A DNA stretch of 64,000 nucleotides from an uncultured bacterium (GCA_905235605.1 CAJOMF010000014.1:4662-68661), one strand, 5' to 3'; shown: positions 3,493-63,120, numbered from the stretch's first letter. Program-made: numbers and translations. Notes: generated by a model not told the origin, from the letters alone.

Positions 3493-5826
3493 TCAGAATG
3501 AGTTTTTAATATTGAATTCAAACTGGAATTTAGGATCTCCCGGTCTACGGGTGAGCGGGAATCCCCATTCGAACGAAAGCGGAGCCATCGGTGTTACCCA
3601 GCGCAGACCGAATCCGGCGCTCCACAAAACGCCGAGCGGAAGGTCGTAGATGTCCTTGTCTTTCGAATTGATGTAGAAAAGATGCTCGTCTTTTGCCCAC
3701 GAGTTGCCGAGATCAACAAAACCGACGATGCTGATTCTCATCGATTTGACGACCGGAATTTCAAGCTCGTTGTTCATTATGAACTGCTTGTCGCCGCCGA
3801 TGATGTAGGGATAAGTCGAACTCGTCGGGTCTTTTCCGTCTGACGGGATGTTGTAGTCGGTGTCGCTGCGGTCGTGGTTGGGACCGATCGAATAGAACGG
3901 ATATCCTCGGACGCTGTACATTCCGCCGAGTTTGAATCTTTCGGCATAAGGCAGCGGCTTGTTCTGAAGGTGGATATTGTAACCGAGTTCGATATTTGTC
4001 CTGAAAACGACGCCAAGGAAAAGTTCCTGATACCATCTGAAGTTGAAGTCGAGGTTTAAAATATCCTCGTCACTTCCCATCCAGCGCGGGAAGTATTCGG
4101 CTCCGCCGATCACATAGATTCCTTTCGTCGCGTACATTCTGTCGTTTCTCATGTCGAGAGCGAGCCGCGCCGTGAGACCTGACGAGAAAATATCTCTGTA
4201 AAGATAGTTCATCTGGTGCTCTGTTGCGCCGTTGATATCAATTTTTTTCAGTTTGTAACCGACGTAAGCGCGCAGATACTTCGCGATCGGTATACCGAAC
4301 GTAACGCTGAAACCGAAGCTGTTCTGACTGTAGTCGGCGTAGTATTCGTAAATGTCCGAATCGTAGTTCAAATATCTGTAGTAAAACGAAAGATTGAATG
4401 AAACATTTGAATCGACGAACCACGGCTCATAGAAACTGAGACTTATTTCACGCCTCATTCTGCTGAGCTGGCCTGCGAGGCTGAGGCTCTGACCGTAGCC
4501 CAGGAAGTTGTTCTGCTCGACTTTTGCGTTGAAAAGGAAGCTCTCGAACGACGAGAAACCTGCGCCGACATTGAAAGTTCCGCTTTTGCGCTCTTTGACC
4601 GTGACGACCATCCTCGCCATGTTCGGAGAGGAACCTTTGACGACTTCGATCTTGACTTCATCGTAGAATCCGGTCCTTTTCAGGTTGAACTCGCTCTCTT
4701 TCTGCTGTGAATAGTTGAAAAGGTCGCCCTCGGAAATCTCCATTTCGCGGCGCATGACTTTGTCGCGCGTCCTGTCGTTGCCGGCAAAGGAAACCTCTTC
4801 AATAAAGCATTTCTCCCCTTTTCTGACGATAAAATTCATGTCTACAGTCTGTTTTTTGTCGTCAAGATGTCTGCCGGGAAGTATTTCAACAAAAGGATAG
4901 CCTTCGTTGCCGTAGATTTTCTTGAGATTTTCAAAATCACGTATTGTTTTTGAGTGCTGATACCACTCTCCCGGCTTTTGCGTGAACTTCATGTCAGGCA
5001 GTTTGCCGCTGTCGAGAGGATCGCCTTCGACCTCGTATTTGCCGACTTTGTAGCGTTTTCCTTCTTCAACGATGTATGAAATGTAGATGTCGCGCTTGTC
5101 TTTTGAAATCATGACAGTCGGTTTGGAAACTTTGACATCGACGAAACCGTTTTCGTTGTAAAGATAGGTTATCGCACCCATGCTCTCTTCGAGCGCGCTT
5201 TTCTTGTAGCCGCCGTCGCTGAAAATCGAGAAAAGCCCGTCCTCCTGAACGGACATGTACTTTTTGAGCTCGGCTTCTTCAAGGTATTTGTTTCCGACGA
5301 TCGTCACTTTTTTGACCCGGCTTTTTTTGCCTTCCGAAATCTTGAAGTCGATGTTGACCTCCTGCTTCTCCTTGTTTATCGCGACATCGGCATCAACTGT
5401 AGCCGAAAGGTATCCTTTGTCGTGGTAAAGACCTAGGATCGCTGAGGTATTTTTGGAAATTTTGTTCATGTCGAGAAGTTCGTTTTTCTTGACAGTGAGG
5501 ACTTCCTTGATGTCGTCGTTGTCGATTTTCTTGTTACCCGAGAATTTGACCGAGCGGATTATCGGAAACTCGACTACTTTGAATTTAAGAAGATTTTTCG
5601 CGTCATCGTAGTAGATCGAAACATCTTCAAAGATCTCGATCGCTATGATTTTTTCAAGGATCTCGTTGATTTCTTTCTCGCTGTAGTCGCGCTTTTCCTT
5701 GAAATACTGCGTCAGGATCGACTGCTCGGTCCTGATCGTCCCTTCGACTGCCACGTCATCGACCTGCAGAGAAAAAAGCGGCAGAAAAAGAAGAAATACA
5801 GCGAAAAAAGCAAAAAATTTATTCAT
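3493..5826 (-). CDS. bamA: Outer membrane protein assembly factor BamA (Omp85 family)
   Basis: 777 aa with signal peptide, POTRA-like repeats and a C-terminal beta-barrel ending in an aromatic residue (…FNIKNSF). Size and architecture fit BamA. Confidence 0.8.
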   Translation of the reverse strand: MNKFFAFFAVFLLFLPLFSLQVDDVAVEGTIRTEQSILTQYFKEKRDYSEKEINEILEKIIAIEIFEDVSIYYDDAKNLLKFKVVEFPIIRSVKFSGNKKIDNDDIKEVLTVKKNELLDMNKISKNTSAILGLYHDKGYLSATVDADVAINKEKQEVNIDFKISEGKKSRVKKVTIVGNKYLEEAELKKYMSVQEDGLFSIFSDGGYKKSALEESMGAITYLYNENGFVDVKVSKPTVMISKDKRDIYISYIVEEGKRYKVGKYEVEGDPLDSGKLPDMKFTQKPGEWYQHSKTIRDFENLKKIYGNEGYPFVEILPGRHLDDKKQTVDMNFIVRKGEKCFIEEVSFAGNDRTRDKVMRREMEISEGDLFNYSQQKESEFNLKRTGFYDEVKIEVVKGSSPNMARMVVTVKERKSGTFNVGAGFSSFESFLFNAKVEQNNFLGYGQSLSLAGQLSRMRREISLSFYEPWFVDSNVSFNLSFYYRYLNYDSDIYEYYADYSQNSFGFSVTFGIPIAKYLRAYVGYKLKKIDINGATEHQMNYLYRDIFSSGLTARLALDMRNDRMYATKGIYVIGGAEYFPRWMGSDEDILNLDFNFRWYQELFLGVVFRTNIELGYNIHLQNKPLPYAERFKLGGMYSVRGYPFYSIGPNHDRSDTDYNIPSDGKDPTSSTYPYIIGGDKQFIMNNELEIPVVKSMRISIVGFVDLGNSWAKDEHLFYINSKDKDIYDLPLGVLWSAGFGLRWVTPMAPLSFEWGFPLTRRPGDPKFQFEFNIKNSF

Positions 5827-22921: not shown

Positions 22922-25813
22922 CTATTTTACGTTGATGGAAACGACACCTTCCCAGCCGGCTGCGATGTAAACGGTTCCTTCGATGAGCTGCGGCTCTACA
23001 CCGTAATCACGCCAGTAGTCGCTGTAGGAGTAAGCTCTTGCTGAGGAAATGTCGAAATTACCTGATTTTTCCCCGCCGTCGGGAGCGATGTATGTCCAGC
23101 CTTCAGTCGTTGAAAGGATGACTCCGCCTTCATTTACATTCATTACGAAGTTGGCGTTTTCAAACGACTTTTTGTAGATCTCTTTGCCGTCAGATGCCGA
23201 AATGAGGCGGACTTCGGTAACTCCGCTCGATCTGTAAGAGCAGGTGTTCCACTCTTCGCCGGTCAAAGTTTTTACGAAGAAGACTTTGTCGTCTTTAGTG
23301 TAAACACTGTTTGAAACAGATTCGTAGGAATTCTGGTTGTAACCGTAGGAATCGGTCAAAGTCTCTTTTGCGACGACTGTTGCGGATGTTTTGTCCTCGT
23401 TGAGTTTCAAAATATTGATGTCGTAAGTGTTTTCGCTTGACCAGCAGTAGTAGTCACCGTCAGCGCAGTTGTCGTCATAGTTGTAGATCTGCGGCGTTTT
23501 TGTGTAGAGATACTTCGCATTTCCGCTGATTCCTACAAGTTCGCCGGGGATGTTCACCCTTTTGCCCGCTTTAGGATTTTTCGGATCGCCTGCGTCGAAG
23601 GGAAGGGCGTAGCAGAGATACTGGTCACCGTTTTCATCGGCTTTTTTGAGTTTGCAGCCGCTTGACCAGAATGTGCTGCCGACTGCGAAAATGTTCTTTT
23701 CACGGATCAGAGACTCATAGTCAAAATCAAAATCAGTAACTTTTATTCCTTTTTTAGGATCGTTCATGTCGATCAGTCTCATTTTTGCATTGTCTTCGGA
23801 ATGGTCGTCATACCATACTATATCGTAGGCAACAGCGGCAATGACATTGTTTTCCGAAGCGGTCTGGATCCAGGAAAGTTCTTTGTTCTCACCCAAAAAG
23901 AAATCGCCGACTTCTTTGACGGCTTCTCCGTCTTTGAATTGAACGACTTTGATCGCTCCTTCAGTATCGTTTGCTTCGCTATTGATCATTATGCGGTAAA
24001 TATATGCGAAGTTGCTGTTCTTCGTCAGGGTGACATCTGAATATGAATTCTGCGGCAGAGTTTTTGTCGACCAGAGAGTTTCCCCGTTAGTCTTGTCGTA
24101 GATGTTGAAATTGTAGTAACCGTCCAGTCCGCAGAGATACTGTCCGCATCTTGCCGTATTGCTGACGTAGGAGGCAAGGGTGAGTTCAGACAAAACTTTC
24201 GGATTGTCCCTGTCAGTCGCATCTGCAAGAACGACATGGTTTTCACCGATGCTGAAAATGAGATCCTGGATCGCGACACCGCGTCTGACATAGCTGTCGG
24301 AAGCGATATAACCGCGGGCTTTCAGGCCTTTGTCAAGGTCAAAATCGATGAGATAGAGTTTGTAGAGCGGCTCCCAGTAAGTGCCGTAATCAATGATCGG
24401 AAGGAGGATAAGACCGAGGTCGTCGAAGATCTTGAACGCTTTCCAGTCGTAGTTCGCTTCGCTGTAGCTGTATCCCGAACCGATCTCCACTGTGTTGATT
24501 TCTTTGGGATTTTCCGGATCTGCGACATCGTACATGCTGACCTTGGTTTTAGAACCGTCGCGGCCGACTGCAAGGATCGTTGTTCCTCTTACTTCGATGA
24601 AATCAGACCAGCCGGGAACTTCAAGTTCACCCAGCTGTTTGAGGTTCGACGGGTCGGAAATGTCAATGACATGCAGCGGATCCTGCTGGAAATAGGTGAC
24701 GGCATACATTCTGTCGCCTTCGAATTTCGTGCCGTAAAGCTGCTGGTTTGTCATGAATATGAGTTTGTCGAGTTTTTTGACGTTCGCAGGGTCGCTGACG
24801 TCAAAACTTTCGATCATACTGTCGCCGTTGCCCCAGCTTGTCGAGGAGCTTACTGCAAAGAAAGTGTTGCCGACCTCGTGCATTTTCCAGCGGTCGCTCA
24901 TGAAACCGTCAGTCCTGAACTCAGCTTTTTTGACGATTTTGCCATCGGGATCGCTGATATCGAACATCGTTACCGGATAGCCTTTGTCGTAGTCTTCAGT
25001 CCAGTAGTACGTGTCAGCTTCGGCAACGTAAATCGATTTCTGCGAAACGTAGAGCGTGTAGCTGTATCCTTCGACCGAAACTTTGTCGACCATTTTTATG
25101 TTTTTCGGATCTTTGACGTTGACCGACATGATCGATATCTGGTCTGCTCCCGAGTAGCCACCGTCACCGTCGCAGTCATACCAGTAGTATCTGTATTCAG
25201 TCGAAGCAACGTAAATGACGTCTCCGACCTGTCTCGAATCTGTGATCCAGCCTTCGATCTCGAATTCGCCGATAAGCGAAAGGTTTGCGGGATCTTCGGT
25301 GTTTACGACCATGAGTTTGGAATAAGTCTTGTTGGAATAGTAGATCTCGTCGTATTCGTAGCTGGAATTCGTGTAGCTTACGAGGATGTAAGCACGTCCT
25401 TCCTGAAGGTACATCTCGCCGACATATCCCTGGAATCTGAGGTTTCCGAGAATCTTTAGGTGTTCCGGATCTTTAATGTCGACTGCGATGAGTCCTTTGT
25501 ACTGGTTTGCGAGCCAGAGAACATTGCCGTCGAACTTGTAGATATCCGACTCAACTATCTCGCGTTCCGCGTCACCGTTTTCGCTGTCTTCGTTCGGTGC
25601 TGCTTCGGCATCGCCTGCATCGGCATCGACTTCATCCGCATAATCGCCGCCTTTGCCTGAATCACTTTCATAAGAATTTCCGACAGTTACGAATTCTTCC
25701 GTGCCGTCGCCCTCATACTCTGTTCTTCCGCCGTTCTGACTTGAATTGTCGCAAGAAGCGAAAAAACAAATCGACAGAACTAAAACTGCCAACAATTTAA
25801 AAAACTTACTCAT
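22922..25813 (-). CDS. LVIVD-repeat beta-propeller lipoprotein (large secreted)
   Basis: Start MSKFFKLL (ATG at 25813). Lipobox FFASC. Repeated LVIVD-like blades: VDIKDPEHLK, VNTEDPANLS, VNVKDPKNIK, FDISDPDGKI, FDVSDPANVK, IDISDPSNLKQLG. 963 aa. Confidence 0.6.
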   Translation of the reverse strand: MSKFFKLLAVLVLSICFFASCDNSSQNGGRTEYEGDGTEEFVTVGNSYESDSGKGGDYADEVDADAGDAEAAPNEDSENGDAEREIVESDIYKFDGNVLWLANQYKGLIAVDIKDPEHLKILGNLRFQGYVGEMYLQEGRAYILVSYTNSSYEYDEIYYSNKTYSKLMVVNTEDPANLSLIGEFEIEGWITDSRQVGDVIYVASTEYRYYWYDCDGDGGYSGADQISIMSVNVKDPKNIKMVDKVSVEGYSYTLYVSQKSIYVAEADTYYWTEDYDKGYPVTMFDISDPDGKIVKKAEFRTDGFMSDRWKMHEVGNTFFAVSSSTSWGNGDSMIESFDVSDPANVKKLDKLIFMTNQQLYGTKFEGDRMYAVTYFQQDPLHVIDISDPSNLKQLGELEVPGWSDFIEVRGTTILAVGRDGSKTKVSMYDVADPENPKEINTVEIGSGYSYSEANYDWKAFKIFDDLGLILLPIIDYGTYWEPLYKLYLIDFDLDKGLKARGYIASDSYVRRGVAIQDLIFSIGENHVVLADATDRDNPKVLSELTLASYVSNTARCGQYLCGLDGYYNFNIYDKTNGETLWSTKTLPQNSYSDVTLTKNSNFAYIYRIMINSEANDTEGAIKVVQFKDGEAVKEVGDFFLGENKELSWIQTASENNVIAAVAYDIVWYDDHSEDNAKMRLIDMNDPKKGIKVTDFDFDYESLIREKNIFAVGSTFWSSGCKLKKADENGDQYLCYALPFDAGDPKNPKAGKRVNIPGELVGISGNAKYLYTKTPQIYNYDDNCADGDYYCWSSENTYDINILKLNEDKTSATVVAKETLTDSYGYNQNSYESVSNSVYTKDDKVFFVKTLTGEEWNTCSYRSSGVTEVRLISASDGKEIYKKSFENANFVMNVNEGGVILSTTEGWTYIAPDGGEKSGNFDISSARAYSYSDYWRDYGVEPQLIEGTVYIAAGWEGVVSINVK

Positions 25814-25940
25814 CCCGACCTCCGTCAAAAAATACTCAAAAACATTCAATTTTCAGCAAATTGAACAAAAATACAATAGTTTAGTTCCATGTTGTGCCGA
25901 TTTTTCTGATAATTTTTTTAAAAAAAGTGATTTTTTCCGA

Positions 25941-28608
25941 TTATTTCACGTCGATCGTGACAATTCCGCTACCGTTTGTCGGAATATAAACTTTTTCACC
26001 GATGAGCTGTGAAGTGCCTGCAACGTTTGAAGCATCGGTGTCTTTGCTGAAAGTTCCGTTTTTTTCCTTGCCTTCCGGAGTTATGTAAGTCCAGTTTTGA
26101 TCTGTCAGAACCAAAAAACCTCCGTCACGGACATTGTTCCACTGTTTTTCCCCTTCAAAAGTTTTGTCGAAAACTTTTTTTCCTTTGTCCGAGATAACTT
26201 TGATCGAAGAAGGTGTCTCCTTTGTGTAGCGGCACTCTTTGACCGATGTCGAATTTGCATCGGAAACAAAAACCATTCCGCTGTTTTTCGGGTATGAATA
26301 GCCGTGCTTTTTCGTTGTTTTGGAAACACTGTCCTTTTCCGTGTTTTCGTAGGTGTAGTCTTCCACGGTTTCTTTTTTGATGACACATAGTCCTGTTTTT
26401 TCGGCATTGAGTTCGAGAATATATGAATAATGTACCGAATCAGACTTGCCGCGTCCCTGGATCTCAAATGTGTCCGTATGCAGATAGCGTCCGTTGTCAC
26501 TGATTCCGGAGAGCATTCCGGGAATATTTATTTTTTCTCCGGCTTTCGGGTTATTCGGGGCGCTGACATCAACCGGAGAAGCATAGCAGAGAAAAATGTC
26601 CTGATTCAGACTGTAGTCAACGCTCTGCTCTTCGCACCAGCTTACCCAGAATGTGCTGCCGTTTACAAGAATTCTGCTGATCCAGCCGAAATCAAAATGG
26701 TACGGAAGCTGTTTTATTCCGCTTCCCAAGTCATTCATATCGAAAAACGACAGTTGTTTCTCATCCCATGTCGTAACATAGGCGACGATATTGTTTTCAG
26801 AAACCGCCATCTTCTTCATTGTCTTGAACAGATCTTTTGATTTGAAATCGGTCTCTTTAAAAGAGCCGTCTTCTGAAAACTCTATAACCTTTAAAATTTC
26901 GTTGTAAGAGGTCTCCTTGCTGGAACTGTCACCGTAAATATATGCGCGGGAACCGTTTTTTCCAAAACAATTTCGGATATTACTTCAGGTTTGCCGTTTT
27001 TCGTGAAATTCACTGACAAAAGACTGGAACGGCTTATCGCCAAAACAGAATCTTTTAATGCAACTCCTCGTTTTAAGAGGCTTTCATCTTCTACAAAACC
27101 GTGTATTTCAAGTCCTTTTTCAATGTCAAAGCCGATAATGTACAACCTGTAGAAAGATTGCCATAACTCGTTGTATTCAGTAACCGGCACAAAGATAAAA
27201 TCATCTGACACTTGGAATATCGGTCTGGAATCTTCGGTCCAATAATTGATGCGGTTCGAGGCAAAAGTCAGGTATTTTATAGTTTTCACATATTTAGGAT
27301 CGGAAAGATCATACGCGGCAACTTCCCCGATATTGTCTCTCTTTCCCATTGCGATAAGACGGTTTCCCTTGACGGCGACTCCTTTAGACTGATTTGGAAG
27401 AGTTATGTTTTCGCCCAATTCCTTAAAATTTGAAGGATCTGAAATGTCGAAAATCTCAAGCCCGTAGACCTGATTATGAGTATAGAACACGGCATACAGT
27501 CTGTCTCCGTCAAAAATAGTGACATCGAGATCCCTGCCCCAGTCCAGCACAAATTGTGAGAGACTTTTTATATTTGTCGGATCGCTCACGTCGAAACTCT
27601 CAATTATATACATTTCGTCGGTTTCTTCATTCTGATAAGAAGTCACCGCATAAAAAGCATTGTCTTTTTCGTATATTCTCCGCAGGTCGCTTACTATTCC
27701 TTCTGCCTGAATTTCAGCTTTTTTGACTATTTTTCCGTCGCCGCTGCTGATATCCAGTACAGTTATCAGAGAACCTCCGCTTTCTGAAGTTTTATCCCTT
27801 GCGGTTTCAGCTACATATACCGATTTTTCAGAAATATGGACAGCGGGGTACGTGGGTCCTTCAACAAAATATTTGTCAATAATTTTCATAGCTTTAGGAT
27901 CTTTTATGTTTAAGGATACGGTCGTTGCTCCGTTTTTCGAAACTTCATATTCTCCGTTGTCGCATCCGTAACCGATATATGTGGAATCACGCAATGCAAA
28001 GTATAAAATATCGCCTGTGAGTTTTGATGAAACAGCAAGCCATCCTCTGATATTGATTTCACCTGAAACAGAAAGTTTTGAAGGATCGGAAATATCAACA
28101 GCGGTAATTTTTATGAAACCCATGTTGACAATGCCGATATCTCCGGTTTCTCCGTCGCCCTCGCCCGCCGATGTTTGGCTGACAACGAAAGCAGTTCCTT
28201 TATGGATATGCATTTCAATAATATCTTTCCCTTTGATTTTAATGCTTCCCAGCCTCTTCGGTTGTTTGGGATTGCTCACGTCAACGGAAACCAGACCGAG
28301 ATAACGGTTCGCAAGCCAGAGAATATCCCCCTCAAGTTTGTATATGTCGGGAGCATAAGTTTCTTCTTCATTCTTACGGCTGATACTGCGGAAAAGGCAT
28401 CCGCTTCCTCTGCAGCCTGCTTCCTCGTGTTTGGCATAGGTTAGAAATTCTTCCGAACCGTCGGCTTTGCAGTTTACTTTCTCCGGAGTCTGATTTTCCG
28501 GATCGCTATCGGAAATCTCCTGTTTCCCGGACTTTCCTTTGCCTCCGCACGCTGTGAAAATGAAAAGAAAAACTGCAAAAGCTGTGAAAAATCTGATGAA
28601 TTTTTTCA
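25941..28608 (-). pseudogene. Tandem paralog of the LVIVD beta-propeller lipoprotein, split into two ORFs by a 1-nt frameshift
   Basis: ORF 26891-28608 is homologous to the N-terminal two-thirds of the upstream paralog (APDIYKLEGDILWLANRYLGLVSVDVSNPK vs ESDIYKFDGNVLWLANQYKGLIAVDIKDPE). ORF 25941-26819 is homologous to the C-terminal third (both end …V(T/S)I(D/N)VK). Homology switches reading frame at the T6 run 26956-26961. Confidence 0.55.
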
Positions 28609-28757
28609 TGACGACCCCTCTAAAAAACCGAAAGATTTTATACAAAAAAACAAAAATACAATAGTTTAGTTTCACCTTGTGCCGGTTTTTCTGATAATTT
28701 TTTAAAAAAAGTAGTTTTCGCAGATCATACCCTGTTTACCTCGCAGTCTCGGATTCC

Positions 28758-28786
28758 TTGACACAAATTCCGCTAATTTATATAAC
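28758..28786 (+). promoter_or_regulatory. Sigma70-type promoter TTGACA-N17-TATAAC for the DUF1566 gene
   Basis: TTGACA 28758-28763, TATAAC 28781-28786, about 38 nt before GGAGGA/ATG. Confidence 0.45.
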
Positions 28787-28824
28787 GCGGCTGTTTTTGG
28801 TTTAATTAACTTTTGGAGGAAAAA

Positions 28825-29325
28825 ATGAAAAAAACCGCATTACTGCTGCTTGCAGTCGTTTTCAGCTGCTTCTTTGTTTCGGCTGAGACAAAACAACAGC
28901 CCGAACAGGCAAAAACAGCTCCCGCTGCTCCGGCAAAACAACTTCAGTGGGCAAAATATCCTGTGTTTATGGCAACTTGGGAAAAAGCCTACGAATACTG
29001 CGAAAATCTTGAAGAAAACGGATTCAAAGACTGGCGCCTTCCAACCATCGACGAACTCCGCTCGATAGTTAAAAAGTGCCCCGAGACCGCTACCGGCGGA
29101 AAATGCGCGATCAGCGACAAAAACGGCAAACTCAGCCTGAACGACTACGACAAACAGGACTGCCGCGGCTGCCGCAGAGGAGGATTCGACCTTCCCGGAA
29201 ACGGATGGTTCTGGTCTGCTTCACAGGTAACCGGCACTGACCACTTCTGGGTCATCAGCTTCAAAAACACAAGAGTTTCTCACGGCAAAAGAGTCGTTCC
29301 CTACAACGCTTACTGCGTCAGATAA
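28825..29325 (+). CDS. DUF1566 / Fibrobacter succinogenes major paralogous domain (Lcl C-terminal-like) secreted protein
   Basis: Signal peptide. …YEYCENLEENGFKDWRLPTIDELRSIV…WFWSAS…YNAYCVR, the DUF1566/Fib_succ_major signature. ATG 28825 after GGAGGA. Confidence 0.75.
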   Translation: MKKTALLLLAVVFSCFFVSAETKQQPEQAKTAPAAPAKQLQWAKYPVFMATWEKAYEYCENLEENGFKDWRLPTIDELRSIVKKCPETATGGKCAISDKNGKLSLNDYDKQDCRGCRRGGFDLPGNGWFWSASQVTGTDHFWVISFKNTRVSHGKRVVPYNAYCVR

Positions 29326-29347: not shown

Positions 29348-31198
29348 TTAGAAAACCACTCCGAGATAAACATTCAGATAGTGGAAAAGCGATGTGTCAT
29401 GCTCGTCTGTGTCGAGACCGGAGAAGGGGATACCAATTTGGTATCTTGTCCCGAGGCGCATTCCGCTTTTGTTTGCGTAGTCAATGCCGATGAAGGGTTC
29501 GATCGCATTCGGAAGACCTTTGCCGCCTAAAGAATTGTTCTCTTTGAGTGCCATGGAGTAAGTCGTTCCGACGTACCCTTTGAGGTCGTCAAGAAAGAAG
29601 TATGTCAGGGTGAGACTTGCGTAGTAGCCGGCCGTGAATCTGCCGAGGAAATTGTTCCACAAAGCTGAGTTGAAGTTGTAGTCTTTGTTGAAACGGAAGT
29701 TTTCGACGGTGCGGTCGCCTTTTGTTGAGGAGTTGTTTATTGCGTTTCCCGGGGTGTTCCACGAATCGCCCTGAACATAGTCTGCATCATCCGGTGAGGC
29801 GATACCGGTAAGGAGACCGATGTGAAATTTTTTGGGAATTACGCGGAATCCGAGGTCTGCAGCCCAGCCGACCATCTGTGTTTTGACCGATTTGTCGCGG
29901 CCGTCTTCGAGGCGGATTTTTCCTATTGAACCTGTGAGAAAAGCAAGTTCGGTTTTGAGCGAGAAGAATTTGTAATGCAGATTGAGCCAAGCATCGAGTT
30001 TCCAGAGTTTCGCACTCTGTCCCGTGTAGGCGTAGACTTTGTCTGGATCGACGAAATGATCGGTAGCAGGCTCGACAGTACCGTCCTGTTCGTCAGATTT
30101 TACCCATTCGCCGGTAGTGTCGCCTTTCCAAGAGAACATGACCATCGCACCGACTTCGACGACAGTTTTTTCGTTGAGGATCTTGTTTTCGAGAACTGCC
30201 GGATCGTCTTCCTGCATGGTGAACATGAGGCTGACGTTGAAGCCGTCGTCTTTCTGTGACGCATCGATGAAGTAGTCGTGATATTTGTCCAGAAGTCCCG
30301 TGGAAGCGAGGTCGAAAGCGGGGATTATCTTGAATCCCATGACCGGGATCGTGAGCTGGATCCTGTCGAGATAGTTGCCGCTCGAAAGGGTGTTGAATTT
30401 GTTGCCGTCGCTGTAAAGGATCCCGAGGCCCCAGTGGAACGGCATCCTTCCGACTTTGAGCTGACCGATCGGAGTGTCGAAAACGCCCCACAAACCTTCG
30501 AAAACTATGTTGGCCGAGGTCGAAAGCTGGGCGTCACGCAGAAGTCCGTTCTCTTTTTTATCGAATTCGTAGTTGTCCGCTCCCATTGCCGTGTTGCCGA
30601 AAATCGAAAGTTTGGTGTGGATCTCCATTGTTTCGGCAATGTTGATGACCGGTTCAAGGTGGAGTTTGAGCCAAGCCCAGTTCAAAACATGTTCGTTTGT
30701 TGAGCGGGTAACCCTTTCGCCAGTCGTTTCATCCGTGACGACGTTGTTTATCGTATTTCTTGAAGCCATGTACGGGTTGTTGCCGCTCAGCTTCATGTTG
30801 TATGAGAAGGTGTTTGCTACGTTGAAATAACCGTAAAGTTCGAAGAATTTTACAGGTTTTCCCTGCTGGATCTTGACTAGAGGCGTATCTGTCGCAGATT
30901 CTTCTTCGGCGATAAATTCCTGACCGTCCTGAAGTTCCTCTTCTTGTTCGGGGGTTTCAGCGTTTTCAGCAGAAGATTCAGTTGTTTCCGGCGTATTGTT
31001 TTCGGGTCCTTTTTCAGGTTCCGGCTCTTTTTCCGGCACGGTTTCCGCTTCTGCCGGTTTTTCTTCTTCTGCAGCCTGTTCCTGTGCGGCTTCTTCTGCG
31101 GCTTTATCCGGTTCTGCATCTTCTGCCGGAGCTGTTTCCTGCGGCAAAAGGGCAAAACTGAAAATAAAAATAGTTAAAAATGCAAGAATTTTAGGCAT
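29348..31198 (-). CDS. Putative outer-membrane beta-barrel protein with Ala/Glu/Pro-rich N-terminal low-complexity region
   Basis: Signal peptide. Roughly 90-aa acidic low-complexity segment. Alternating amphipathic beta-strand pattern. C-terminal …YLNVYLGVVF ends on an aromatic residue. Confidence 0.45.
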   Translation of the reverse strand: MPKILAFLTIFIFSFALLPQETAPAEDAEPDKAAEEAAQEQAAEEEKPAEAETVPEKEPEPEKGPENNTPETTESSAENAETPEQEEELQDGQEFIAEEESATDTPLVKIQQGKPVKFFELYGYFNVANTFSYNMKLSGNNPYMASRNTINNVVTDETTGERVTRSTNEHVLNWAWLKLHLEPVINIAETMEIHTKLSIFGNTAMGADNYEFDKKENGLLRDAQLSTSANIVFEGLWGVFDTPIGQLKVGRMPFHWGLGILYSDGNKFNTLSSGNYLDRIQLTIPVMGFKIIPAFDLASTGLLDKYHDYFIDASQKDDGFNVSLMFTMQEDDPAVLENKILNEKTVVEVGAMVMFSWKGDTTGEWVKSDEQDGTVEPATDHFVDPDKVYAYTGQSAKLWKLDAWLNLHYKFFSLKTELAFLTGSIGKIRLEDGRDKSVKTQMVGWAADLGFRVIPKKFHIGLLTGIASPDDADYVQGDSWNTPGNAINNSSTKGDRTVENFRFNKDYNFNSALWNNFLGRFTAGYYASLTLTYFFLDDLKGYVGTTYSMALKENNSLGGKGLPNAIEPFIGIDYANKSGMRLGTRYQIGIPFSGLDTDEHDTSLFHYLNVYLGVVF

Positions 31199-46103: not shown

Positions 46104-46145
46104 TTTTTTTACCTCAATTATTCACAAAAAAACATTTCACACTGT

Positions 46146-46178
46146 ATATAATCGGTGAAAAACGGATAAGTTGACAAA
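46146..46178. promoter_or_regulatory. Island-specific conserved motif, copy 1 (TATAAtCGGTGAAAAA-N8-GTTGACAAAA)
   Basis: 43 nt 5' of the 206-aa gene start, on the template of minus-strand genes. Four more copies elsewhere in the island. Confidence 0.5.
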
Positions 46179-46209
46179 ATTTTTTCAAAAATTTCATAAT
46201 ATGCCTGTT

Positions 46210-52214: not shown

Positions 52215-52251
52215 TTTTTCCTCCTTGAGAAGCGTTACATCCAACACCACT

Positions 52252-52284
52252 TATAAGCGGTGAAAAATCCCTGAGTTGACAAAA
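52252..52284. promoter_or_regulatory. Island-specific conserved motif, copy 3
   Basis: TATAAGCGGTGAAAAATCCCTGAGTTGACAAAA, 38 nt 5' of the helicase start. Confidence 0.5.
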
Positions 52285-54364: not shown

Positions 54365-54407
54365 CTTTTCCCTCCATTTGTCTTGTCAATCAAACGCCTA
54401 CACGACA

Positions 54408-54440
54408 TGTAAGGGGTGGAAAATGAGAGAGTTGACAAAA
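54408..54440. promoter_or_regulatory. Island-specific conserved motif, copy 4 (degenerate 5' half)
   Basis: TGTAAGGGGTGGAAAATGAGAGAGTTGACAAAA. Confidence 0.45.
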
Positions 54441-58389: not shown

Positions 58390-58590
58390 TTTTTTCTCCT
58401 TTCAAGTGGTTCTGTTTCTCAAAAAAACAATCAACGAAAAGTATTTTAAGCAAGAATTTTTAATGTCAATATCAATTACTTGTATTTTGACCAATGTTAA
58501 ATCTTCTTACATTTGTAAAAAATCCTGACATCGCAATAAATAGAACAATGTATCCTTTTTTCACTTATCAAAGAACCTTTCTGCTCTACC

Positions 58591-58624
58591 TATAAGCGTC
58601 AAAAACTTTCTGAGTTGACAAATA
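58591..58624. promoter_or_regulatory. Island-specific conserved motif, copy 5
   Basis: TATAAGCGTCAAAAACTTTCTGAGTTGACAAATA, about 200 nt 5' of the XRE-PIN-ANK gene. Confidence 0.45.
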
Positions 58625-59680: not shown

Positions 59681-59768
59681 TGGTGCCGGAGACCGGGCTC
59701 GAACCGGTACAGGAGGTTATCCCGAGGGATTTTAAGTCCCTTGCGTCTACCAATTCCGCCACTCCGGC
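59681..59768 (-). tRNA. tRNA-Leu (anticodon UAA), CCA encoded
   Basis: Minus-strand read: GCCGGAGTGGCGGAATTGGTAGACGC…AGGGACTTAAAATCCCT…GGTTCGAGCCCGGTCTCCGGCACCA. Long variable arm. Anticodon loop CTTAAAA. Confidence 0.85.
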
Positions 59769-59785
59769 GGTTATAAGTTTGAAAA

Positions 59786-59859
59786 TGGAGGCACCTTCCG
59801 GATTCGAACCGGAGATGGAGATTTTGCAGACCTCTGCCTTACCTCTTGGCTAAGGTGCC
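59786..59859 (-). tRNA. tRNA-Cys (anticodon GCA), CCA encoded
   Basis: GGCACCTTAGCCAAGAGGTAAGGCAGAGGTCTGCAAAATCTCC…GGTTCGAATCCGGAAGGTGCCTCCA. Anticodon loop CTGCAAA. Confidence 0.85.
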
Positions 59860-59897
59860 GACCAAAAAGAATTTCGATTGAAAAAGGACATAAAAAA

Positions 59898-59973
59898 ATG
59901 GAGCGGGAAACGGGATTCGGACCCGCGACGTCTACCTTGGCAAGGTAGCACTCTACCACTGAGTTATTCCCGC
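59898..59973 (-). tRNA. tRNA-Gly (anticodon GCC), CCA encoded
   Basis: GCGGGAATAACTCAGTGGTAGAGTGCTACCTTGCCAAGGTAGACGTCGCGGGTCCGAATCCCGTTTCCCGCTCCA. Anticodon loop TTGCCAA. Confidence 0.85.
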
Positions 59974-60074
59974 TCTGGCAGGCGACAAGATAGTCAGAAA
60001 CTTTTGAATGTCAAGTTTTTTTTGCAGGTTTTTGAAAAAATCTGCTTTTTCCTGCGCGCTCCCGCCTTGTATCT

Positions 60075-60170
60075 GAGAAAATTTTGCGGAAAGTGCGTTT
60101 TTTGGCGAAAAAAATTTTGCGAAAAGTGCAGTTTTGAGCAAAAAAAATTTTGCGATTCCTGCAAAGCCAT
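60075..60170. repeat. Three tandem imperfect copies of AAAATTTTGCG(G/A)AAAGTGC(A)GTTTT; a related copy at 59619-59645 and a 45-bp near-duplicate at 63074-63118
   Basis: Direct comparison: 60117-60160 ttttgcgaaaagtgcagttttgagcaaaaaaaattttgcgattc versus 63074-63118 ttttgcggaaagcgcagttttgagcaaaaaaattttgcgattc. Confidence 0.55.
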
Positions 60171-63054: not shown

Positions 63055-63070
63055 AAAAAAGGACTAACAG

Positions 63071-63120
63071 ACAAACATTTTGCGGAAAGCGCAGTTTTGA
63101 GCAAAAAAATTTTGCGATTC
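63071..63120. repeat. Distal copy of the TTTTGCGGAAAGCGCAGTTTTGAGCAAAAAAATTTTGCGATTC element (direct repeat of 60117-60160)
   Basis: Near-identical 45-mer in the same orientation. Brackets the 60.4-62.9 kb two-gene segment. Confidence 0.5.

Follow-up and report, generated by a model that had tools for sequence, protein, structure and literature searches.

The DNA analysed here is a 64-kb stretch from an uncultured bacterium (GCA_905235605.1, CAJOMF010000014.1:4662-68661), termed the window, and all coordinates are counted on the whole stretch. It contains two neighbouring, co-oriented open reading frames (ORFs) of one family on the minus strand, copy 1 and copy 2, the latter spanning 28609-25941 overall (Table 1). 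An earlier note on this DNA had described them as tandem paralogs that share a ~70-bp 5' region, with copy 2 frameshifted, and all of these features are indeed present at the locus. Copy 1 is intact. Copy 2 starts at the ATG at 28609 and terminates at a stop codon at 26893-26891 after a 19-residue out-of-frame tail (PAHIFTVTVPARRPLTTKF), and the rest of its coding region continues in the -1 frame. The longest ATG-initiated ORF of this 3' part (26819-25941, 292 residues) has neither a signal peptide nor an obvious Shine-Dalgarno sequence. At the protein level the 3' part shares 92% identity with the intact copy 2 of the related strain L001 (tblastn, with a frame switch), and at the nucleotide level 98-100% identity with that of a second strain, L023. 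The proteins of copy 1 and copy 2 share 33% identity over copy-1 residues 3-562 and 35% over residues 610-975 (numbered on a 975-residue ORF, to the C-terminus), and the frame change of copy 2 falls between these two segments. By contrast, the coding DNA of the two copies yields just short patches of 72-85% identity (blastn). The claim that the paralogs align over their full lengths therefore stands for the proteins but not for the DNA, in which strong similarity is confined to the upstream block.

Table 1. Coordinates of the two paralogous genes and their 5' modules in the window
Feature	Position	Strand	Description and basis
Copy 1 ORF	ATG 25813 to stop 22922	minus	Intact; lipoprotein of 963 aa
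Copy 1 5' module	25849..25930	minus	Sequence and family alignment; nhmmer 25927-25863, E 3e-19
Copy 1 module runs	TCAC 25930-25927; T7 25926-25920; A7 25919-25913	minus	
Copy 1 boxes	Box A 25912-25901; box B 25886-25878	minus	Box A TTATCAGAAAAA; 14-nt variable spacer; box B AACTAAACT
Copy 1 putative core promoter	-35 25876-25871; -10 25854-25849	minus	-35 TTGTAT; 16-nt spacer; -10 GAAAAT
Copy 1 leader	25814..25848	minus	~35 nt with Shine-Dalgarno GGAGG; sequence, alignment
Copy 1 inverted repeat	25865-25845	minus	TTCAATTT/AAATTGAA, across the -10 region
Copy 2 5' part	26891..28609	minus	572-aa ORF with signal peptide, lipobox and complete PF09826 propeller
Copy 2 3' part	25941..26960	minus	C-terminal domain coding region; -1 frame; no stops until 25941
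Copy 2 deletion junction	26946..26962	minus	Single hybrid repeat GAAAAAACGGTTCCCGC; alignment to L023 and L001
Copy 2 mosaic patch	26962..27645	minus	~68% identical to L001, 98-100% to L023; adjacent 28500-27700 opposite
Copy 2 5' module	28635..28714	minus	Sequence; nhmmer 28711-28649
Copy 2 module runs	CTAC; T7 28710-28704; A6 28703-28698	minus	
Copy 2 boxes	Box A 28697-28686; box B 28671-28663	minus	14-nt variable spacer between the boxes
Copy 2 putative core promoter	-35 28661-28656; -10 28640-28635	minus	-35 TTGTAT; 15-nt spacer; -10 TAAAAT
Homopolymer differences	Window 28644-28650, 28698-28710; L001:4944-4960; L023:3900-3925		

Both proteins match the Pfam family PF09826 (Beta_propel), copy 1 with 232.9 bits (E 1e-68) and the N-terminal ORF of copy 2 with 75.2 bits (E 6.5e-21), above a gathering threshold of 22.4 bits, and essentially all homologs carry precomputed PF09826 annotations. 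The label LVIVD (PF08309), under which the pair had first been recorded, is imprecise: in the Pfam hidden Markov model (HMM) search this family reached 18.3 bits (E 0.0015) in copy 2, under its 20.2-bit gathering threshold with no stretch passing, and gave no match in copy 1. LVIVD-like "...DISDP.." blade motifs are present in the locus proteins, and some homologs have a weak precomputed PF08309 match. The signal peptides are MSKFFKLLAVLVLSICFFAS↓C (lipobox FFAS↓C) in copy 1 and MKKFIRFFTAFAVFLFIFTA↓C (lipobox IFTA↓C) in copy 2; the lipobox cysteine (C21) is invariant in 59 homologs, and both copies are predicted to be lipoproteins. In copy 1, Cys21 is followed by a disordered acidic linker (residues ~22-86), the N-terminal PF09826 beta-propeller (~90-550), a Cys-containing connector (C556 and C561) and a second all-beta, propeller-like domain (~595-963). 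The AlphaFold model of copy 1, computed with an alignment of 59 homologs, is all-beta, with a predicted local distance difference test (pLDDT) score of 82 and a predicted template modelling (pTM) score of 0.77. A Foldseek search of this model against the PDB returned generic multi-propeller proteins (DDB1, LRP2 and EMC1) with low template modelling (TM) scores. Searches of the PDB by sequence and of NCBIfam with the proteins gave no match, and no functional study was found in the literature on PF09826. The strong HMM match of the N-terminal domain and the predicted propeller-like fold resemble those of secreted PF09826 beta-propeller proteins; however, the locus proteins differ by their lipobox, their acidic linker and a further propeller-like domain of ~370 residues that has no Pfam model. 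As for surface exposure and biological role, we infer that both copies encode generic secreted or surface double-propeller lipoproteins.

The domains of this family are modular. Intact paralogs of 514-517 residues, consisting of the C-terminal domain only, occur at L005:1857-3401, L015:12475-14028 and L027:8880-10433. They keep the 5' module and the signal peptide, and the whole N-terminal propeller is gone, an in-frame domain loss within the family. Because such intact single-domain paralogs exist in other genomes, the loss of single modules would seem to be tolerated.

Comparison with related strains revealed an intact copy 2 of 942 residues in L001, whose copy 1 is 97% identical to that of the window, and of 935 residues in L023. 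On both sides of the break L023 and the window are 99.4% identical, and L023 has 145 additional nucleotides that are missing from the window. In L023 the left boundary of this segment is GAAAAAACGGTTCCCGC and its right boundary is GAAAAACAGTTCCCGC, two imperfect direct repeats of 16-17 bp (5641-5658 and 5788-5803 of L023) with 8 bp of perfect identity. The window has a single hybrid repeat, in which the crossover lies within GTTCCCGC (26953-26946) and the junction reads GGAAAAAACGGTTCCCGC/GCATATATTT. As the two repeats are read in different frames (EKTVPA vs KNSSRA) and 145 is not a multiple of three, the deletion results in a frameshift. The loss equals 48 codons of the inter-domain connector, including C556, C561 and Y572 (all three invariant in the 59 homologs) and the near-invariant W581. 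In silico re-insertion of the L023 segment restored a single uninterrupted ORF of 937 residues.

Copy 2 thus lost 145 bp, most likely by slippage during replication or by microhomology recombination at the direct repeats in the connector, leaving a propeller-only lipoprotein of 572 residues and an untranslatable C-terminal remnant. The arrangement is that of the general mechanism, with repeats flanking the segment in the intact allele, the mutant keeping one hybrid copy and exactly the intervening DNA gone; nothing in the case of copy 2 is unusual. Two other accounts of the frame change were rejected. A homopolymer slip at the A6 run does not explain the 145-bp gap seen in comparison with L001 and L023, and a -1 programmed ribosomal frameshift is excluded by the physical absence of 48 conserved codons.

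An identical 572-residue protein (P0121) is encoded on five contigs. Of these alleles, L021 (ERZ27234816, MEGAHIT k141) is 100% identical to the window over the whole locus, and L022 (ERZ1667847, k87) is 100% identical over the reach of its 2-kb contig (28.9-26.9 kb). The deletion allele is accordingly judged real from sequence comparison, since the identical allele is found in five separately assembled contigs. The deletion also appears to be recent, because the downstream frame is stop-free, ~100% identical to L023 and without further damage. Overall, we favour, with a probability of roughly 80%, the explanation that the two genes are ancient paralogs of a lipoprotein family with a common 5' module (described below) and that the break in copy 2 represents ordinary gene decay rather than a genetic switch. 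The suggestion of a decaying duplicate is thereby borne out, as copy 2 has been damaged in this strain by the 145-bp deletion. Two points weigh against this explanation. The independence of the five contigs was judged by assembly accessions and k-mer sizes, not by reads. Moreover, the truncated 572-residue product may still function, given the in-frame single-domain paralogs elsewhere, and the term "pseudogene" may overstate the loss; as modular loss is tolerated, the propeller-only product could keep some activity.

This last point leads to the possibility of a functional split gene, in which the deletion allele has been kept since the propeller-only lipoprotein is useful, perhaps together with a separately translated C-terminal domain. 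In its favour, the complete PF09826 domain is retained in the 572-residue ORF, single-domain paralogs with the same 5' module exist in frame in other genomes, and the allele is widespread enough to appear in five assemblies. However, neither a signal peptide nor a Shine-Dalgarno sequence is present in the C-terminal ORF, the out-of-frame break appends a nonsense tail, and the promoter spacer described below is off-consensus. In addition, no intact allele with the mosaic of the window was seen among the homologs, so that the age of the allele cannot be judged from them. A split gene is therefore unlikely, though not far-fetched. As a separate observation, another family member, on a contig of a yak reticulum metagenome-assembled genome (MAG), carries a frameshift of the 1-nt type within the same 48-codon connector segment (L019:1740-1900). 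This could be coincidental, could mark a fragile region or, the contig being short, could stem from a sequencing error.

The related contigs derive from MAGs of the ruminant gastro-intestinal tract, which are named "bacterium UBP6_UBA1177/UBA1209", RGIG yak, goat and buffalo bins and, in some cases, "uncultured Spirochaetales". UBP6 is named as a phylum in rumen metagenome papers, and remoter homologs are found in Candidatus Sumerlaeota. The related contigs hold tandem arrays of one to four paralogs, and housekeeping genes border the loci, among them carD, mnmE and an epimerase gene. For example, GCA_017963125.1 (L002) has a four-paralog array, and the MAG Tb.RUG.391 has at least five paralogs across two contigs. 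In GCA_017963125.1 the first two paralogs of the array are separated by an inserted AAA_14/DUF4143 ATPase gene (L002:201-1538). The two genes of the window are members of a multigene family of secreted lipoproteins in this uncultured ruminant-gut lineage, whose nearest relatives are the MAGs named UBP6 or "uncultured Spirochaetales". Copy 1 has orthologs of 60-97% identity in other genomes, and copy 2 has an ortholog series of its own at 60-81%. As the two proteins are just 33-35% identical and each copy has its own orthologs in other genomes, the duplication is ancient and older than the diversification of the clade, and the copies are ancient paralogs.

Over 71 nt, the upstream blocks of the two genes (25934-25864 and 28718-28649) share 90% identity (blastn E 7e-22). 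The window has exactly two occurrences of each of two sub-motifs of the block, compared to 0.00 occurrences expected from shuffles, and no further copies of the module beyond these two were found in the 64 kb. Alignment of 29 unique variants defined the anatomy of the module, whose elements follow one and the same order in every family member. It starts with TCAC, in some cases preceded by an A-run, followed by T3-8 and A6-9 runs, the invariant TTATCAGAAAAA (box A), a 14-nt variable stretch and the invariant AACTAAACT (box B). Box B is followed by an A, the hexamer TTG[T/C/A][A/G]T, a spacer, the hexamer [T/G/A]A[A/G]AAT and a leader of 21-45 nt that carries GGAGG and ends at the ATG. The TTG and the A and T at the positions equivalent to -11 and -7 are invariant across the variants. 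The spacer between the two hexamers varies in sequence but hardly in length, with 27 of the 29 variants having exactly 16 nt. The exceptions, which differ within the T-run, are one paralog with 17 nt and copy 2 of the window, the sole 15-nt case of the 29; the latter is compatible with relaxed selection or prior down-regulation of the broken gene. In tandem arrays the module starts ~10 nt past the stop codon of the upstream gene.

An nhmmer profile built from six copies of the module yielded 25 significant matches in genome loci. A further 14 came from metagenome loci, and in 13 of these the downstream ORF is readable. Every match (~40, in UBP6-like relatives from ruminant-gut MAGs) has the orientation of a family gene and is located 18-62 nt upstream of its ATG, and the module precedes at least four divergent paralog types in ~20 related contigs. 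A metagenome-wide scan for TTATCAGAAAAA-N14-AACTAAACT retrieved 15 loci, nine of which are true family loci; the other six are chance matches in unrelated AT-rich contigs without the flanking motifs. Among the loci found, the module is thus lineage-specific and exclusive to this gene family.

By its pattern, the TTGnnT-N16-nAAAAT segment is assigned as a putative sigma-70-type core promoter, because the TTG and the A and T at -11 and -7 are invariant and the spacer is fixed in length but free in sequence. The most diverged ortholog, L008, has lost box A and retained TTGTGT-16-GAAAAT. Promoters of the sigma-70 type are probably in use in this genome, since the tRNA operon of the window has a canonical TTGACA-16-TATCTT promoter with an upstream A-run (60014-59987). 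This operon, which served as the reference for promoter type, encodes tRNA-Gly(GCC), tRNA-Cys(GCA) and tRNA-Leu(TAA) on the minus strand (59681-59973). The invariant boxes upstream of the -35 hexamer would serve as sites for a dedicated regulator, or as UP-like elements, and would in either case co-regulate all paralogs.

Several observations speak against this assignment. The -35 hexamer of the module fits TTGACA at just three of six positions, for which reason the site was not called by the consensus promoter scan. An alternative core, GAAAAA-N17-TAAACT, may be drawn, with T7A7 as the UP element. Furthermore, a -35-like TGnAAC directly before box B in most copies resembles promoters of extracytoplasmic function (ECF) sigma factors. 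An ECF-type promoter was rejected, as there is no conserved -10 at 16-17 nt downstream of TGnAAC, although a minor caveat remains. Two further promoter types were discarded. A sigma-54 reading of CGGCAC... places the site in the variable part of the module, with no TTGC after it, and a Bacteroidetes-type -33/-7 promoter (TAnnTTTG) would rely on a -7-like TATTTTTG that is not conserved and lacks TTTG at -33.

The conservation of the 5' end extends from the module into the coding sequence (CDS). Between copy 2 and the L019 gene, a stretch of 226 nt that takes in the module, the leader and the beginning of the CDS is 91% identical. Within the CDS, nucleotides 1-120 of the two genes are 95-97% identical, compared to ~30% identity of the mature proteins. 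A similar pattern of a near-identical 5' end and a divergent body is found in a second gene (L002_p2). Within the MKKF...FIFTAC leader class as a whole, CDS nucleotides 1-120 are 84-97% identical and the bodies ~30%; a second leader class starts with MSKFF.... On this evidence the 5' end, comprising promoter, leader, signal peptide and first mature residues, must have been exchanged or homogenised by recombination, because synonymous sites would be saturated at ~30% protein identity. Selection alone appears insufficient to explain the conservation of the module; selection would hold it nearly identical, and recombination would add to its conservation. As the block is found before four or more divergent types of paralog in ~20 contigs, its near-identity would reflect selection and/or 5'-end recombination rather than recency.

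The strain alleles of copy 2 are mosaic as well. Over 28500-27700 the window is 98-100% identical to L001, compared to 51-93% to L023, whereas over 27600-26900 it is 98-100% identical to L023 and 60-87% to L001. Strains that are near-identical elsewhere also differ from each other in the segment of the promoter and signal peptide (28700-28600). Such a mosaic structure indicates recombination.

The module might also be more than a common promoter, namely a portable cassette for recombination and expression. In such a system, the modules flanking each gene body in the arrays would allow bodies to be swapped, duplicated or deleted between paralogs and strains, and the T-run in the spacer (15, 16 or 17 nt) would tune or switch the paralogs, amounting to a system of surface variation. 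We consider this a speculative and improbable extension of the data. If true, an uncultured rumen phylum would have its own means of surface variation, which would parallel the erp genes of Borrelia and the vlp genes of Mycoplasma but be independent of them.

The erp genes (ospE/ospF/elp) of Borrelia burgdorferi are lipoprotein genes with an "upstream homology box", in which conserved promoter/operator DNA, leader peptide and first mature residues precede divergent, recombining bodies (PMC10016077). The family described here similarly is a multigene lipoprotein family with common putative promoter/operator DNA (~40 elements, all before family genes), and a conserved leader peptide and first mature residues are likewise joined to divergent bodies. 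They differ in several respects. The bodies of the present family are homologous (~30-37% identity, one HMM), whereas those of erp arose independently; the location is in tandem arrays on the chromosome rather than on cp32 prophages; and the module has no sequence similarity to the erp operators, nor were the regulators BpaB, BpuR and EbfC seen here. The parallel is thus best taken as an analogy and not as membership, the co-regulation of the paralogs being presumed in our case. In the variable lipoprotein families of Mycoplasma (vlp and vsp), conserved 5' regions are combined with homopolymer switches in the promoter. The present family shares with them a conserved module of putative promoter and signal peptide before divergent lipoprotein bodies, together with homopolymer runs in or near the promoter, some of which differ in length. 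However, 27 of 29 variants keep the 16-nt spacer, the runs have a length of just 5-9 nt, repetitive C-terminal coding regions are absent, and inactivation has occurred by deletion rather than by a change of tract length.

The same features bear on the proposal of a phase-variable locus, made in the earlier note, and on the form it could take as a contingency locus, in which copy 2 would be switched by slipped-strand changes in the A6 run or in the T/A homopolymers of the promoter. There is an A6 run at the junction, and the T/A runs differ between paralogs and, at the same locus, between strains (T7A6 in the window, T7A7 in L023 and T6A6 in L001). Moreover, the spacer length varies with the T-run: the broken copy has 15 nt, a single paralog has 17 nt and every other variant has 16 nt. 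The break itself, however, is a 145-bp deletion between direct repeats and not a slip in a repeat tract; it removed invariant residues, and no change of tract length restores the protein. In addition, tracts of 6-8 nt are short for contingency loci, and the 16-nt spacer in 27 of 29 variants argues for stability rather than switching. Judged from the alleles compared, phase variation at the coding level appears excluded, because a repeat-tract change cannot reverse the deletion and only re-insertion restores the ORF. Switching at the promoter level is unlikely, the 15-nt spacer of copy 2 being its main residual evidence. As a whole, a contingency locus has little to commend it.

A further alternative is that the conserved block acts as a transcribed cis-regulatory RNA, such as a riboswitch-like or protein-binding leader, rather than as promoter DNA. 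The block is highly conserved, strand-specific and located immediately 5' of the ORFs, as would be expected of such a leader. However, RNAalifold predicted no consensus pairs from 23 variants, and Rfam gave no match at the gathering score, with chance-level matches below it. The bipartite invariant boxes, the fixed-length free spacer and the TTG and A...T positions are typical of promoter DNA. In the arrays, moreover, the module begins ~10 nt after the upstream stop, leaving no space for a separate promoter upstream of it. An RNA leader is thus highly improbable.

A recent tandem duplication, in which the promoter and leader were copied along with the gene and their near-identity is residual similarity, can hardly be upheld. 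The two neighbours do share their orientation, full-length homology and 5' blocks of 90% identity, but the contrast between these blocks and coding regions of 33-35% amino-acid identity without extended DNA similarity already refutes it; both copy types also have distinct orthologs in many genomes, and elsewhere the block shows the same degree of conservation in front of further paralogs that have diverged just as much. Of the earlier proposal that a tandem duplication had included the promoter and leader, the paralogy therefore stands, and the block is most likely promoter or regulatory DNA, whereas co-duplication fails as the cause of its near-identity, given the 33-35% identity of the proteins and their separate orthologs.

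An assembly artefact is equally hard to credit. Metagenome assemblers can produce chimeras of co-occurring strains, and the window allele does resemble an L001-like 5' half joined to an L023-like 3' half, so that collapsed or chimeric assembly of strains or paralogs might have created both the frameshift and the mosaic. Against this, the same 572-residue product is found on five contigs, with 100% identity in L021 and L022 despite their different k-mers and accessions; the deletion repeats (8-16 bp) are far shorter than k = 87-141 and cannot collapse; and the deletion is absent from both putative parents. A collapsed or mis-assembled repeat, which would have overturned the earlier description, is hence at odds with the finding of one identical allele in five separately assembled contigs.

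The genes around the locus are conserved in related strains. A DUF1566/Lcl_C-domain lipoprotein gene (28813-29325, plus strand) is transcribed divergently from copy 2 and is conserved beside the locus, followed by the gene of a 616-residue TIGR04551-family protein (29348-31198, minus strand), also a conserved neighbour. On the other flank lie a 116-residue ORF and carD. Elsewhere in the window, four copies of a ~44-nt intergenic element (46136-46179, 52241-52284, 54397-54440 and 58580-58623) read, on the minus strand, TTTGTCAACT, ~20 nt and CTTATA, and each is located upstream of a minus-strand gene. They fall within a stretch of lower GC content (46-60 kb, GC 0.36-0.41 vs ~0.45 elsewhere), and the element may serve the genes of a cluster as a common promoter or operator. 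A different 44-nt repeat, AAAATTTTGCGGAAAGTGCG/AGTTTTGAGCAAAAAAATTT, occurs in three copies, two of which form an overlapping tandem pair directly upstream of the tRNA cluster (60074-60117 and 60107-60150) and one of which lies at 63.07 kb (63070-63113).

For annotation, copy 2 is best described as a gene disrupted by a defined 145-bp deletion, and neither as an assembly problem nor as phase-variable, and the family label should be PF09826 instead of LVIVD. Current understanding is not overturned by these results, as lipoprotein families with conserved promoter/leader modules are well known and so are deletions at microhomologies. The sole novel element, and a mildly novel one, is the family-specific cis-module in an uncultured rumen phylum. 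The module represents a lineage-specific, putatively cis-regulatory mark of the whole double-propeller lipoprotein family in a candidate rumen phylum without cultured members; it provides a testable handle on gene regulation and surface-protein diversification in this lineage, and a sequence tag for finding further members of the family.

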